NCBI GenBank assembly: GCA_902780565.1
Contig: CACZGD010000014.1
Location: forward strand, 1,977-65,976
Source of the DNA: Oscillospiraceae bacterium
Lineage (GTDB): Bacteria; Bacillota; Clostridia; Oscillospirales; Acutalibacteraceae
DNA length: 64,000 bases
Reading direction: 5' to 3'
Below, piece after piece: positions 52,198-56,209 of this stretch. The notes beneath the pieces were generated by a model. It was not told where the DNA came from. It saw only the letters and a program-made list of their open reading frames with translations, and did not search any database. The translations under genes were made by a program, and so were the position numbers. Each line of letters starts with the position of its first letter. The stretch's first letter is position 1.

Positions 52198-52401
52198 TCA
52201 AAAACCGACGGTCCCGTCAACCGCGTTTTCGCCGATCTCGGCATTTAACGCGGTATTTTTGCACCCGCCCGCGCGGCGGCAGTCCTCGTACCGGCTGCAC
52301 CTTCTGCTGCGTTCCCCGTTGTGATAGACCGTTTCCTCAAACACGACGTTGCCGCCCTGCACAAAGCAATACTGCTCATAGGTCAGCTTGTGATTCTTCA
52401 T
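52198..52401 (-). CDS. small hypothetical Cys-containing protein (67 aa)
   Basis: The start MKNHKLTYEQYCF... follows a GGGAGGG SD, upstream of manA. I recognise no family. Confidence 0.4.
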   Translation of the reverse strand: MKNHKLTYEQYCFVQGGNVVFEETVYHNGERSRRCSRYEDCRRAGGCKNTALNAEIGENAVDGTVGF

Positions 52402-52557
52402 GCGCGTCCCTCCCATCCGTTTTCTCTATATCTTATTATACCCGCCGGGAAAAAATCATCGGTTTTCGCGGATTGGGAATTTTCGGCATACTTCACAAAG
52501 GGACGAACATATATTTTGAACAGAAAAACCGGCGCGCTCACGCCGGAAGGAGGACGC

Positions 52558-52806
52558 ATGAATCATCTGCTGCTGTTGCTGATCCCCACGGGGATCGTCG
52601 TGTTGCTCTACGCGTTTCGGAAAGTCCGGCTGCGCCACCTGCTGCTCTCCGCCATGTCGGGGCTGCTGGCGCTGATCGCTGCGGACTTCGTCTGCTCGTT
52701 CTTTTCGTTCAACCTGCCGCTCAACGCCCTGTCGCTCGGCATGGCTGCCGTGGGCGGGATCCCGGGCGCGATTTTGTATAACGTGCTGGCGGTCATTTTC
52801 GCCTGA
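52558..52806 (+). CDS. bofA: pro-sigma-K processing inhibitor BofA family protein
   Basis: 82 aa with two TM helices and a GGAAGGAGG SD. The C-terminal LPLNALSLGMAAVGGIPGAILYNVL resembles B. subtilis BofA (...INLVTTAISGILGIPGIAALV...). Confidence 0.72.
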   Translation: MNHLLLLLIPTGIVVLLYAFRKVRLRHLLLSAMSGLLALIAADFVCSFFSFNLPLNALSLGMAAVGGIPGAILYNVLAVIFA

Positions 52807-52821
52807 TCAAAAAAAACGCGC

Positions 52822-53895
52822 TCAGAAGAGCACGTTTTTATAACACACCATCGGTTCGTTTTTGTCGTAGTTCCAGCTATGCGCGGCGTCGCCGCGGCAG
52901 AAGGGCAGGTCGGGGCAGGCGCGGCAGGTTTCGTTCCTTTCGCCGAGATTTCCCCGGAAGATCCCGAACCCCTGCTTCCACACGTCCGAAAACCGGTCGG
53001 TTTTCACGTTGCCGAACACCGTTTCGGGACGGCGCTCGATATCCAGGCACGCGCCAATATCGCCGTTCGCCATGATGGAGGCGGTGTAGACCCCGGCGTT
53101 GCACAGCCAGTACCAGTCCCGCACCTCGGCCTCGTACCCGAGCCCCAGATAGTGCGAGCAGCCGTATTCCACGGGGTACCCCGCCCGGCGCTTTTCGCGC
53201 GTGAAATCCATCAGCGTGCGCACGTCCCCGGGGGTCAGCATCAGATCGGGGCGGGACAGCGCCCGTCCGATGGGCTCCAGCGCCGCCACGCGCCAGGAAT
53301 CGATATCGATCCCGCGCATCACCTCGAACAAGGCTTCCAGCTCCCGGATGTTTTTGTGGTTGAACACCGTGGTGATCTGCACCGCATCGAACGCGTTTTC
53401 GTCGATCAGGTTCTGTACGCCGCGCATGGCGCGTTCATAGCCGCCCCGCATCCCGCGCAGCTCGTCGTGGGTCTCCGGTAGGCCGTCGATGGAAACGGAG
53501 ATCGTGCGCATGCCCGTTTCCCGCAGCCTGTGCGCGGTCTCTTTGTCGATCAGCGTGGCGTTGGAGGTCATGCCCCAGACGAAGCCGAGGTCCTTTGCCG
53601 TGCCCATGATCTCAAAAAAGTCGCGCCTGAGCAGCGGTTCGCCGCCGGTGATGCACAGCATCAGCCCCTCGGTGCCGAAATCGGCCTTGACCTCCTCTAA
53701 AATGCGGCGGTAGTCGGCTGCCGTCAGGCTTTCGTCGCCCTCATAGGTGCAGTTGGAGCCGCAGTGGAAGCAGTTGGCGTTGCACCGGAGCGTGAGCTCC
53801 AGAAACAGGTGACGGAGCTTCGGCTCGCGGCAGAGCTTTTCGTGATACGCGGCAAGCTGCGTCAGATGCCGTTCCTTGATCGTTTTCATGGTCAT
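52822..53895 (-). CDS. radical SAM enzyme with C-terminal SPASM/twitch-type auxiliary cluster domain
   Basis: The CxxxCxxC motif is in LELTLRCNANCFHCGSNC, with ITGGEPLLR downstream. The C-terminal Cys pattern is CNAGVYTASIMANGDIGAC...CRACPDLPFC. The ATG at 53895 overlaps the upstream stop (ATGA); an alternative ATG is at 53889. The track ORF extension to 54093 overlaps the upstream gene. Confidence 0.8.
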   Translation of the reverse strand: MTMKTIKERHLTQLAAYHEKLCREPKLRHLFLELTLRCNANCFHCGSNCTYEGDESLTAADYRRILEEVKADFGTEGLMLCITGGEPLLRRDFFEIMGTAKDLGFVWGMTSNATLIDKETAHRLRETGMRTISVSIDGLPETHDELRGMRGGYERAMRGVQNLIDENAFDAVQITTVFNHKNIRELEALFEVMRGIDIDSWRVAALEPIGRALSRPDLMLTPGDVRTLMDFTREKRRAGYPVEYGCSHYLGLGYEAEVRDWYWLCNAGVYTASIMANGDIGACLDIERRPETVFGNVKTDRFSDVWKQGFGIFRGNLGERNETCRACPDLPFCRGDAAHSWNYDKNEPMVCYKNVLF

Positions 53896-54326
53896 TCCCT
53901 CGCGGCGGTCGTGGGCGGCGGGCCGTAGAGCGGCGCGGCGGTATTTTCCTCCGGCACGAAGGCGGTGGAGAGCTCCGCTGCATCCTCTTTCGTCACGTCC
54001 GGCGGACCGTAGAGCGTGGGAGCCTCGTTCTCCTCCGGGGAGAAGTCGGAGGGCGCGTCGGCGGTCTCCTCCTGCTCCTGCGACGTGAACCACTCCGGCG
54101 GTCCGTACAGCGCCACGTTTTCATTATCGGACGCGTCGAACCAGTCGGGCGGCCCGTAGACGTCCTCCTGCACGTTCGTCCCGGGGTCAAAGGAACCGGG
54201 GTCCGTCGGCGGCGGGCCGTACAGACTCTCCTGCACGTTGCAGCCGGGCAGCAGAACGGCGGAGGCGGCGACGCCCCCGGCAAGGATCGCGGCAGCAGTG
54301 CGCCTGCTGGGCTTTCTCGGTTTCAT
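53892..54326 (-). CDS. secreted (lipobox-like LPGC) acidic protein with five N-x4-[ILV]-YGPP repeats
   Basis: The start MKPRKPSRRTAAAILAGGVAASAVLLPGC follows an AAGGAG SD. The repeats are CNVQESLYGPP, TNVQEDVYGPP, DNENVALYGPP, ENEAPTLYGPP and ENTAAPLYGPP. Confidence 0.65.
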   Translation of the reverse strand: MKPRKPSRRTAAAILAGGVAASAVLLPGCNVQESLYGPPPTDPGSFDPGTNVQEDVYGPPDWFDASDNENVALYGPPEWFTSQEQEETADAPSDFSPEENEAPTLYGPPDVTKEDAAELSTAFVPEENTAAPLYGPPPTTAARE

Positions 54327-54458
54327 ACGTACGCTCCTTTCGGTTTTCTCTTCCGGTTTCAGTGTATCACACTTTCCGCGGTCCGTCAAGTAGACCGGCA
54401 AGGAAAAAACAGAACGCCGCGGCAGGCGCGGCGTTCCCGTTTCCATTGACTCAAACGG

Positions 54459-54827
54459 TCATTCCTTCTCGGTTTTCCGGATCCCGCGCGGCGGACCGTA
54501 CAGCGGCACGGCGACGTTGCGGCGCGGATCGAAGGGCGGTTTTTTCGGCGCGGGCGGTACGACCCCGTCCTCGGGCGGCAGCGGAAGACCCGTCTCCGGA
54601 TCGAAGGACGGGCGGGATTCATCCGCCTGCTCTTCACCTTGCAGGATCACGCCGTCGTCCGGCGCGGGCGGTCCGTAAACGTCGATCGGCTCGTTCTCCT
54701 CCGGCTGAAACGCGTCGCCCCCGCGCTTTGCAAGCATCTCCGGCGGACCGTAGATGCAAACGGGCACGTTTTCCTTCGGCGCAAACGCCTTCTTTTTCTT
54801 GGGCGCGAATATGCCCTTCAGACGCAT
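54459..54827 (-). CDS. small basic/Pro-rich protein with three N-x4-[ILV]-YGPP repeats, no signal peptide
   Basis: 122 aa with an AGGAGG SD 8 nt upstream. The repeats are ENVPVCIYGPP, ENEPIDVYGPP and RNVAVPLYGPP. Confidence 0.6.
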   Translation of the reverse strand: MRLKGIFAPKKKKAFAPKENVPVCIYGPPEMLAKRGGDAFQPEENEPIDVYGPPAPDDGVILQGEEQADESRPSFDPETGLPLPPEDGVVPPAPKKPPFDPRRNVAVPLYGPPRGIRKTEKE

Positions 54828-54848
54828 GGCGCTCCCCTCCTTTTCTCC

Positions 54849-54877
54849 ATCCTACCATACACACGGAAGAAAGTCAA
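54849..54877 (-). promoter_or_regulatory. sigma-A type promoter for the YGPP/radical SAM unit
   Basis: The minus strand reads TTGACT-17 nt-TAGGAT with a TGn extended -10. It lies downstream of the tuf terminator. Confidence 0.5.
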
Positions 54878-54963
54878 GTGCGACCCGCTGCCCCCGCGCA
54901 CCCGTGTACCCGTGCACCCGCCGGGCAACGCCCGGCTTACAATGCCGACCGCAGGTCCCGCCA

Positions 54964-54995
54964 TTTTTAAAAAATGCCGCCCTTGCGGACGGCAT
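54964..54995 (-). terminator. intrinsic terminator after tuf
   Basis: The minus strand reads ATGCCGTCC-GCAA-GGGCGGCAT followed by TTTTTTAAAAA. Confidence 0.8.
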
Positions 54996-55009
54996 TCTCT
55001 TAAAATTGC

Positions 55010-56209
55010 TTATTCAGCGATGTCGATGACGACGCCGGAACCGACGGTTCTGCCGCCTTCACGGATAGCGAAGCGAAGACCCTTTTCGATAGCGATGGGG
55101 GTGATCAGCTCAACGTCCATGTCGACGTTATCGCCGGGCATGCACATCTCGGTGCCCTCGGGCAGGGTGATGACGCCGGTCACGTCGGTGGTTCTGAAAT
55201 AGAACTGCGGACGATAGTTGTTGAAGAAGGGGGTATGTCTGCCGCCTTCATCCTTGGTCAGGACGTACACCTGGCCGGTGAACTTGGTGTGAGGATGAAT
55301 GGAGCCGGGCTTCGCAAGAACCTGACCTCTTTCGATGTCGGTTCTGTTGACGCCACGAAGCAGGCAACCGATATTGTCGCCGGCCTCGGCATAGTCGAGG
55401 AGCTTGCGGAACATTTCGATACCGGTCACGACGACGGTTCTCTTCTCATCGGTCAGACCGACGATCTCAACGGATTCACCGAGCTTCAGCTGGCCGCGCT
55501 CCACTCTGCCGGTAGCAACGGTACCACGACCGGTGATCGTGAACACGTCTTCGACAGGCATGAGGAAGGGCAGGTCGGCCTTACGGTCGGGCGTGGGAAT
55601 ATAATTATCGACAGCGTCCATGAGTTCCCAGATGCACTTCAGCTCGGGGGCGTTGACATCGTTGCCGTTGTACTCGAGGGCCTTCAGAGCGGAACCCTGG
55701 ATGATGGGGCAATTCTCATCGAACTCGTACTCGGCGAGGGTCTCGCGGATCTCCATCTCAACAAGCTCAAGGAGCTCGGGATCGTCGACCTGGTCAACCT
55801 TGTTCATGAAAACGACGATCGCGGGCACGCCGACCTGACGGGCAAGAAGCAGGTGCTCCTTGGTCTGCGCCATGGGGCCGTCGGTCGCGGCGATAACGAT
55901 GATCGCGCCGTCCATCTGCGCAGCGCCGGTGATCATGTTCTTGATATAGTCGGCATGGCCGGGGCAGTCCACGTGCGCATAGTGACGCTTTTCGGTCTCA
56001 TATTCCACGTGAGCGGTGTTGATCGTGATACCACGGGCTCTCTCTTCGGGAGCCTTGTCGATGCTGGCGTAATCCATGAACGCAGCGCCGCCCTTCATAG
56101 CGAGGGTCTTGGTGATCGCAGCGGTCAGAGTGGTCTTGCCGTGGTCAACGTGACCGATGGTGCCAATGTTTACATGGGGTTTGGTTCTTTCGAATTTCGC
56201 TTTTGCCAT
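55010..56209 (-). CDS. tuf: elongation factor Tu
   Basis: 399 aa with [17 protein letters not shown] and NKVD. Strong match to EF-Tu along the whole ORF. Confidence 0.98.

Follow-up and report, generated by a model that had tools for sequence, protein, structure and literature searches.

A radical SAM/SPASM enzyme and its YGPP-tagged neighbours: a candidate leaderless, tag-directed protein maturation system of gut and rumen bacteria

Introduction

Here we describe a three-gene locus in a 64,000-nucleotide stretch of contig CACZGD010000014.1 from an Oscillospiraceae bacterium (the window; G+C content 59.9%), where it occupies the minus strand, flanked by the tuf terminator and by a convergent gene for BofA. 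It encodes two proteins with repeated Tyr-Gly-Pro-Pro (YGPP) units, A and B, and a radical S-adenosylmethionine (SAM) enzyme with a SPASM domain, and an open reading frame (ORF) check bore out the position and content of all three genes as described in the initial annotation, which was made from the letters of the window. We propose that the locus quite likely encodes two substrate proteins and a dedicated maturase that would be directed by a short tag, would need no leader peptide and would modify its substrates before export. Comparative genomics shows a partnership of enzyme and tag that is independent of other genes, and below we lay out this evidence, the tag and its carriers, and the reactions that the enzyme might catalyze.

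Results

The enzyme and the tag as genomic partners

Relatives of the enzyme number 1,817 at E below 1e-20, most of them 60 to 70% identical and annotated solely as 'radical SAM protein', and at least 521 were confirmed in a collection with one genome per species (about 186,000 species). For the forward test we took the best 80 of these at least 521 loci, all in species-representative genomes, which comprise about 43 Clostridia, 16 Erysipelotrichaceae and 21 Coriobacteriia, nearly all of them rumen or gut metagenome-assembled genomes. An ORF with two to seven YGPP units sits immediately upstream, in the same orientation, in 72 of the 80; in 7 further loci its place is taken by a small lipoprotein bearing one or two YG[PAV]P units, and the last has no upstream sequence. 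The neighbourhood check that the initial annotation had proposed for homologues of the enzyme thus found a YG[PAV]P protein directly upstream in 79/79 evaluable loci. In fact the tag protein is the sole conserved neighbour when flanking ORFs within 5 kb are compared by all-against-all BLASTP; in the same comparison no protease, transporter, RRE (the recognition element of RiPPs, peptides that are made by the ribosome and modified after translation) or second tailoring enzyme was conserved, which led us to reject a larger cluster containing any of the first three.

The reverse test did not use the enzyme. Metagenomes were scanned for two VYGPP units exactly 17 residues apart, which matched 99 stretches, of which 80 were retrieved and 42 have at least 1.5 kb of downstream sequence. 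In 35 of these 42 an enzyme homologue lies downstream in the same orientation, at a distance of 77 to 873 bp, and among the shorter loci the 5' part of the enzyme gene is visible in 21/38. We rejected chance adjacency, against which the two directional tests argue together with the background, which amounts to 4 YGPP in the 821,707 six-frame residues (0.82 million) of homologous loci outside the upstream zone, one of the 4 being another true tag. We also rejected the reading of YGPP as a generic low-complexity linker of the taxon, as no other ORF of the 64-kb window contains it and it is nearly absent from the flanks.

A library-wide HMMER search returned 288 representatives of the enzyme at E below 1e-30, and one relative, P0131 (L180:3001-4371), is a natural fusion of the enzyme with one tag (NMPAVIYGPPEML) and a zinc ribbon. 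Because the adjacency holds in both directions, the fusion exists in nature and no other neighbour is conserved, the YGPP units are very probably targets of the enzyme, and the suggestion of the initial annotation that all eight units of the window are substrates gains support from the forward and reverse counts and from the fusion alike.

The enzymes of rumen and gut Firmicutes (Clostridia, Erysipelotrichaceae, Lachnospiraceae) share 60 to 70% identity with those of Actinobacteria (Coriobacteriaceae, Atopobiaceae, Eggerthellaceae) from these habitats, and the genes flanking the 80 forward loci are not shared, apart from one taxon-limited gene family in 18 of them. This combination of unshared flanks with high enzyme identity suggests horizontal spread of a two-gene cassette within the habitat.

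A tag of 15 residues

All eight [ILV]-Y-G-P-P units of the initial annotation are present, however they form only part of the motif, and the full tag is 15 residues long with the consensus [FY]-x-P-x-x-N-x4-[VIL]-Y-G-P-P and a modal spacing of 17 residues (302 units). With its frequencies over these units it reads [FY](73%)-D-P(63%)-x-x-N(80%)-x4-V(84%; L 9%)-Y-G-P-P. Since the first search pattern had fixed YG.P, we re-measured the invariance of the motif by anchoring on its flanks: with the anchor N-x4-[VLIM]-XX-PP the XX is YG in 238/239 cases, and after the anchor [FY]xPxxN-x5 YGPP comes next in 150 of about 163. The window tags conform to this picture, with N at -6 in 7/8 and F at -11 in 7/8. 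All eight Tyr residues of proteins A and B fall inside YGPP, a motif expected about 0.01 times per protein from their composition.

Carriers of the tag

Protein A (20% Pro, pI 5.3) is preceded by a good ribosome-binding site, AGGAGG, 8 nt 5' of its ATG and has the units NVPVC-I-YGPP-EML, NEPID-V-YGPP and NVAVP-L-YGPP (Table 1). An exact copy of it exists in public collections, and in the closest relative (L068) an orthologue has an identical first unit, C-I-Y-G-P-P-E-M-L. Protein B begins with MKPRKPSRRTAAAILAGGVAASAVLLPGC, in which a basic n-region and a hydrophobic core lead to a lipobox with Cys29. The residues preceding C29 are MKPRKPSRRTAAAILAGGVAASAVLLPG, with an unusual Pro at -2, and the N-terminus has only a weak version of a twin-arginine motif (SRRTAAA). 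Profile searches of Pfam and NCBIfam with both proteins gave no matches at E up to 10.

Similar to protein B, a lipobox was assigned by a crude rule to at least 70 of 95 precursors, and inspection by eye adds most of the others. In 18 precursors, all from Coriobacteriia, the lipobox comes after a TRRxFTAAG twin-arginine motif (MKKLTRRxFTAAGIL...), which suggests export through the twin-arginine translocation (Tat) pathway and would fit cytoplasmic maturation before export. The lipobox count and the Tat signals of Coriobacteriia support products destined for the cell surface, where the initial annotation had suggested a modified surface or spore-associated protein rather than a small RiPP. A second type of carrier has no signal peptide, is basic and contains the C-I-Y-G-P-P-E-M-L unit; such proteins, resembling A, occur in L068, L071, L080 and L046.

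The tag is found on other protein types as well. Membrane proteins of the DUF805 family (64 bits by Pfam in L117) end in a tail of three or four full FDPxxNxxxxVYGPPEMF tags, and no enzyme gene was found near them in the four loci with enough flank, L098 being a shorter locus. In one Ruminococcus locus (L078) the enzyme is preceded by a run of three secreted tag proteins, of which two have a type I dockerin (one by Pfam at 32 bits, the other by eye), so that the tag also occurs on components of the cellulosome; tag proteins of the dockerin loci also bear looser P-Q-P-x-Y-G-P-M-W units.

The enzyme and its clades

The assignment of the enzyme to radical SAM proteins with a SPASM domain, already made in the initial annotation, agrees with Pfam matches above cutoff to Radical_SAM (PF04055; 80.4 bits, cutoff 29.5) and to SPASM (PF13186/TIGR04085; 33.4 bits, cutoff 21.5). 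In its AlphaFold2 (AF2) model, with a confidence score (pLDDT) of 82, a single N-terminal helix leads into a beta/alpha radical SAM core, and the model contains no N-terminal RRE domain. The closest solved folds are SuiB, SkfB, CteB, BlsE, PqqE and the anaerobic sulfatase-maturating enzyme (anSME).

Canonical SPASM domains have seven Cys, CX9-15GX4C ... CX2CX5CX3C ... C, and two auxiliary clusters. The window enzyme keeps the canonical spacing at C265-x12-G-x4-C283, C324-x2-C327-x5-C333 and C351 and lacks the fourth Cys of CX2CX5CX3C (CRACPDLPFCRGDAAH), where A337 stands in its place. In the YGPP-linked enzymes this stretch reads CRGDAAH, CAGGPFH or CAGDSTH, with a His six residues past the third Cys, and all of them have an extra upstream Cys (C246); in fact C246, C265, C283, C324, C327, C333, H339 and C351 are invariant across the three YGPP-linked clades. 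Judging from this signature, their auxiliary cluster may be His-ligated or have an open site.

A comparison with the TIGRFAM and Pfam radical SAM-SPASM families, likewise proposed at the outset, found no characterised family at its cutoff. The best NCBIfam model is TIGR04133 'rSAM_w_lipo', a hypothetical equivalog, with 262.1 bits over residues 13-354 of 357 (cutoff 425), and every other family gives 131 bits or less. By sequence the enzyme is best described as belonging to a sister clade of TIGR04133, not as a member. True members were recovered by the reverse test, where six loci have an enzyme only about 33% identical to the window enzyme; two of these were scanned, L143 and L151, and score 492 to 495 bits. 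In the four of the six that we inspected, Bacteroidales-style lipoproteins (...LGLTSC...VYGPPP...EDVYGPPVE) lie directly upstream. VYGPP lipoproteins, one to three per locus, precede the TIGR04133 enzymes of L113, L143 and L151, and the Bacteroidales proteins matched no NCBIfam model. Thus the two clades have in common the adjoining VYGPP lipoproteins, the missing fourth Cys and the His six residues past the third, and gene B supplies the adjacent small lipoprotein that the name of TIGR04133 implies. They differ in that the Bacteroidales lipoproteins mostly lack the upstream [FY]-D-P-x-x-N and have fewer units, and in that the window enzyme belongs to a Firmicutes/Coriobacteriia clade (Clostridia, Erysipelotrichaceae, Coriobacteriia) whereas the true TIGR04133 members come from Bacteroidales-like metagenome loci; the identity to that family is only about 34%.

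A third clade, the relatives of the fusion protein P0131, shares 41 to 47% identity with the window enzyme. In 5/5 loci inspected a small double-zinc-ribbon gene overlaps the 3' end of the enzyme gene, and its product has exactly one tag, placed between the two ribbons (for example YKPENNLMECIYGPPP and FEPYDNAIYCIYGPMP), and the form N-x3-C-I-Y-G-P-P of tag A1 recurs in these partners. Since it spans three enzyme clades and three phyla, the partnership of tag and enzyme is older than any single carrier. L186 has another radical SAM gene (L186:3905-5227) after the one for the zinc-ribbon protein. Fusions to other domains occur among more distant enzyme relatives (P0133, P0137, P0141, P0144-P0146, P0337/P0338 and others), with one group having a C-terminal JAMM/MPN-like HSHPxxxxxxSxxD motif, seen by eye, and another with an N-terminal GNAT acetyltransferase.

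Gene layout and transcription signals

The ATG of the enzyme overlaps the TGA of gene B (ATGA at 53895..53892), as first annotated and taken there to imply translational coupling. At 53889 an alternative in-frame ATG, for which the GAGGGA Shine-Dalgarno sequence is better spaced, gives 355 aa, and several near-identical database entries are annotated from a later start at this length. The spacing is then either a 4-nt overlap or a 2-nt gap, and the coupling of gene B and the enzyme is tight under both starts.

A promoter-like site downstream of the tuf terminator, upstream of gene A, had also been annotated, and both elements are present as sequence signals, the one as a consensus match and the other as a predicted hairpin. 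A second promoter-like site lies 5' of gene B; both sites are assigned by consensus match alone, and the two observed in 2.8 kb compare with 0.6 expected. Between genes A and B a terminator-like hairpin (-25 kcal/mol, z -3.5, with 1/200 shuffles equally good) could be a putative terminator or an attenuator. Genes A, B and the enzyme are probably not one simple transcription unit. Gene A may form a largely separate transcript, possibly more highly expressed, since the hairpin with its run of six U and the second promoter-like site separate it from B, with B and the enzyme as the tightly coupled pair. Thus of the self-contained three-gene unit first described the genes and the first promoter-like site stand, and its unity is put in doubt by the hairpin and the second promoter-like site. 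This layout recalls the order of precursor, terminator and enzyme that gives excess precursor in some RiPP loci; unlike in those loci, the lipoprotein gene B sits on the enzyme side of the hairpin.

An Rfam search covering 52400..55300, with matches accepted to E 1, detected neither a riboswitch nor a leader RNA, and no convincing terminator was found 3' of the enzyme gene. The convergent neighbour of the enzyme gene (52558..52806, plus strand) encodes BofA, a sigma-K processing regulator, as an 82-aa membrane protein (Pfam 35 bits, cutoff 26), and from this match the host is probably a spore-forming Firmicute.

Table 1. Features of the locus and of related loci. Positions are those of the window unless a locus identifier is given.
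Feature	Position	Strand	Description
tuf terminator	hairpin 54993..54976 + U-run	-	-21.5 kcal/mol, z -6.8
Promoter-like site upstream of gene A	54849..54877	-	TTGACT, 17 nt, TAGGAT, TG-extended -10; 9/12 matches
Gene A	54459..54827	-	122 aa, 3 tags, no signal peptide
Tag A1	54741..54785	-	FAPKENVPVCIYGPP; cytoplasmic-type unit, followed by EML
Tag A2	54666..54710	-	FQPEENEPIDVYGPP; fits the 15-residue consensus
Tag A3	54489..54533	-	FDPRRNVAVPLYGPP; 15-residue consensus
Terminator-like hairpin between genes A and B	54411..54437	-	11 bp, 8 G-C, then GUUUUUU
Second promoter-like site, 5' of gene B	54361..54389	-	TTGACG, 17 nt, TACACT, TG-extended
Gene B	53892..54326	-	144 aa, pI 4.05, predicted lipoprotein, 5 [LV]-YGPP tags
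Signal peptide of B with lipobox LLPG-C29	54240..54326	-	sequence features (AVLLPG-C29)
Tag B1	54210..54254	-	LLPGCNVQESLYGPP; begins at the lipobox Cys
Tag B2	54147..54191	-	FDPGTNVQEDVYGPP
Tag B3	54096..54140	-	FDASDNENVALYGPP; 17 aa past B2, the modal period
Tag B4	54000..54044	-	FSPEENEAPTLYGPP
Tag B5	53916..53960	-	FVPEENTAAPLYGPP
Radical SAM/SPASM enzyme	52822..53895	-	357 aa (355 aa from 53889)
Radical SAM [4Fe-4S] motif	53761..53784	-	C38-x3-C42-x2-C45 (CNANCFHC); invariant in three alignments
SPASM region	52843..53160	-	Cys C246, C265, C283, C324, C327, C333, C351 and invariant His339
Tat-type precursors	L021, L029, L031, L032, L036, L038, L040, L041, L047, L049, L050, L051		
Tat-type precursors, continued	L057-L059, L061, L063, L070		
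DUF805 tag proteins	L085:1775-2623, L092:10253-11023, L116:2073-2912, L117:1919-2725, L098:998-1747	-, +, -, +, -	
Dockerin-type carriers	L078:3471-5979, L075:914-1564	+, +	
Double-zinc-ribbon genes	L181:4098-4463, L183:4082-4366, L185:3598-4185, L186:3591-3857, L187:2653-3204		

Discussion

We envisage that the enzyme would act in the cytoplasm, where it would directly recognise the tag of about 15 residues in an unfolded chain with the help of neither a leader peptide nor an RRE. A 5'-deoxyadenosyl radical would then serve to alter every tag, either on the invariant Tyr or beside it, which gives protein A three sites and protein B five. Protein B would afterwards be exported and lipid-anchored at Cys29, displaying a modified, acidic, Pro-rich and disordered chain on the cell surface, and protein A, which has no signal peptide, would remain cytoplasmic. 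With no RRE, protease or transporter the system looks like leaderless, motif-directed protein maturation before export, and a fold that comes nearest to SPASM enzymes modifying peptides and proteins also speaks for leaderless action. We infer the role of the tag as substrate, the timing of the modification before export and the reaction itself from these comparisons.

Several points weigh against this proposal. The tag is a predicted substrate, on genomic grounds. Seven of the 42 reverse-test loci have tags and no nearby enzyme (4 DUF805 proteins and 3 orphan lipoproteins), and for these the choice is between an enzyme that acts in trans and a tag with a separate function. Moreover, AF2 leaves the tag of the fusion P0131 disordered (pLDDT <50 at residues 403-427) and gives no support for docking. 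Similar considerations bear on a very improbable alternative, in which the tag proteins are not substrates and bind, carry or regulate a small molecule that the enzyme would make or modify, or the tag is a docking motif that localises or regulates the enzyme: TIGR04133 is followed in the NCBIfam ranking by AhbD, NirJ and NirJ2, which are tetrapyrrole enzymes (118 to 131 bits), some tag proteins lack a nearby enzyme and the fused tag stays undocked, however these scores are far under the cutoffs (500 or more) and reflect mostly the generic radical SAM core, the neighbourhood has no conserved genes for tetrapyrroles or any other pathway, and the stop-start overlap, the invariant core across three phyla, the multiple tags and the enzyme fusion are hallmarks of an enzyme with its substrate.

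As for the chemistry of the proposed maturase, our leading guess is a splicease-type excision of tyramine at [VIL]-Y-G, which by analogy with known spliceases we regard as possible although clearly short of an even chance. X-Tyr-Gly is the defining splicease site, with Met or Leu as the natural X and natural cores such as PIRP-L-YG-LPI and AVAA-M-YG-VVFP (PMC11414181, PMC10533398), and spliceases accept short tags placed in whole proteins, for which the leader is unnecessary (PMC11414181). All eight window tags contain [VIL]-Y-G. The spliceases (PlpX/PlpY/PlpA) further resemble the window system in that a radical SAM/SPASM enzyme acts at X-Tyr-Gly with a hydrophobic X and that several sites are possible. 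They differ from it in that a Nif11 or NHLP leader, a Y protein and a leader helix are all missing from the window system, in its invariant Pro-Pro and conserved upstream element, and in its carriers, which are exported lipoproteins rather than RiPP precursors. A search for a splicease-type activating helix found no conserved third gene, and the precursors consist of a signal peptide and disordered repeats with no leader domain.

Comparison with PlpX, whose sequence we recovered from the Pleurocapsa locus via its precursor PlpA3, points both ways. In favour of splicing, the two enzymes align over 329 residues at 27% identity, and PlpX, which scores 824 bits on TIGR04103, has TIGR04133 as its fifth-best NCBIfam match (148 bits, full length). 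Against it, the window enzyme reaches 117.6 bits on TIGR04103 (cutoff 725), no better than on AhbD or NirJ. The SPASM domain of PlpX has the canonical CX2CX5CX3C (CKTCEFAELCRGGC) and no counterpart of C246, whereas the window enzyme is without the fourth Cys and has the invariant His. In addition, no splicease is known to require the invariant Pro-Pro or the upstream F-x-P-x-x-N. Membership in the PlpX splicease family (TIGR04103, rSAM_nif11_3) was rejected, the score being under the cutoff and the SPASM signature different.

A cross-link is in our estimate an unlikely alternative to splicing, with the same relationship of enzyme and substrate. Here the Tyr would form a C-C or C-O bond, as in the cyclophanes of triceptides or in Tyr chemistry of the PqqE or MftC type, and one version would join the Tyr ring to the C-beta at +2 (Y-G-P, perhaps also F-D-P), with a change of -2 Da per site and rigid, protease-resistant turns as the product. 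Each repeat offers two aromatic-X-Pro triplets, [FY]-D-P and Y-G-P, and the processing of many short repeated motifs by one SPASM enzyme is typical of triceptides and of PapB. SuiB, CteB, SkfB, PqqE and ChlB are among the structural neighbours of the enzyme, and MftC targets a Val-Tyr pair, similar to the 84% conserved V before the Tyr of the tag. In triceptides, however, the X2 position is variable, and the invariant middle Gly of the tag (238/239) fits the X-Y-G splice motif better; triceptide enzymes also normally use an RRE or leader, which is missing here, and no cyclophane is known to have Pro as the acceptor. The enzyme showed no specific sequence affinity to the cross-linking families, all of which score about 60 to 120 bits. 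The analogy with triceptides drawn in the initial annotation, a match in form only (one SPASM enzyme and multiple aromatic-X-X motifs per precursor), therefore found no specific support: no sequence evidence for membership was obtained, X2 is Gly and X3 is Pro, and the precursors are exported proteins of 70 to 350 aa.

Still less probable is a mass-neutral change or small addition, such as L-to-D epimerisation of [VIL] or Tyr (as by PoyD or YydG/EpeE), hydroxylation or methylation, by which a disordered chain exposed on the surface would gain protection from the proteases of the gut. Radical SAM epimerases act preferentially on Val and Ile, EpeE is among the fold matches (rank 43) and, by their contig titles, the hosts come from the protease-rich rumen and gut. 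EpeE is only a distant match, though, and epimerisation would leave the invariant Tyr-Gly-Pro-Pro unexplained while the putatively epimerised residue varies between V, L and I; protection from proteases would moreover be needless for the cytoplasmic zinc-ribbon carriers of the tag.

Two further known systems bear comparison with the proposed maturase. Similar to the window enzyme, anSME is a SPASM enzyme of about 370 aa with no RRE, which acts on a short motif in an unfolded cytoplasmic protein before export, and its structure matches the enzyme model (E about 4e-12, TM-score 0.65) with weak sequence similarity to its family profile (E 1e-6). It differs in its motif (C/S-X-P-X-R), in its reaction (oxidation to formylglycine) and in its target, which is the active site of an enzyme and not a disordered repeat. 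MftC (mycofactocin) and PqqE (pyrroloquinoline quinone) are Tyr-directed SPASM maturases of ribosomal peptides, the former acting on Val-Tyr, and their families match the window enzyme over its full length at 92 to 112 bits, far under the cutoffs. Unlike the window enzyme they have an RRE partner or domain, work at a single C-terminal or unique site and yield small cofactors.

The initial annotation knew of no described system with a YGPP core, which overstated the case, since NCBIfam curates the sister family TIGR04133, whose members adjoin VYGPP lipoproteins, and the curated name rSAM_w_lipo shows that the pairing of enzyme and lipoprotein had already been noticed. Our literature search found no paper on the YGPP motif or on the enzyme family, although a 2022 survey of YG-rich neighbours, known to us through papers that cite it, may include them. 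As described there, that study screened all radical SAM-SPASM enzymes of reference proteomes and predicted 939 systems, of which 27 were tested (PMC10849128, PMC10533398). Existing annotations of the family are limited to 'radical SAM protein' or the placeholder rSAM_w_lipo; the clade is uncharacterised, and its auxiliary-cluster signature is distinctive.

Its distribution shows the tag to be portable between lipoproteins, dockerin proteins, zinc-ribbon proteins and the C-terminus of the enzyme itself. At present we can only speculate that this portable tag and a leaderless radical SAM/SPASM superfamily with a His auxiliary signature constitute an undescribed covalent modification of whole proteins, a new class distinct from RiPPs, with surface lipoproteins, cellulosomal dockerin proteins, the tails of membrane proteins and cytoplasmic zinc-ribbon proteins as carriers in hundreds of species from three phyla; we consider this doubtful, if far from negligible.

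Taken together, the enzyme and its tag very probably form a widespread, uncharacterised protein-modification system found in hundreds of gut and rumen species from three phyla, with relatives of the enzyme mainly in the Clostridia, Erysipelotrichaceae, Coriobacteriia and Bacteroidales of these two habitats. The predicted targets end up on the cell surface, components of the cellulosome included, and the tag also occurs in cytoplasmic zinc-ribbon proteins. Should tyramine splicing prove to be the reaction, a surface lipoprotein of these gut and rumen bacteria would be a tethered, multi-warhead protease shield, and the surface of gut anaerobes would be studded with electrophilic ketoamide warheads in arrays, a new mechanism of interaction with the host or with other microbes; protein engineering would gain a compact splice tag that is leaderless by nature. 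Any other reaction would be a new one for radical SAM enzymes, with a minimal tag ready-made. In either case the system is minimal, with two genes and a tag of 15 residues, is common in important microbiomes and is directly testable.

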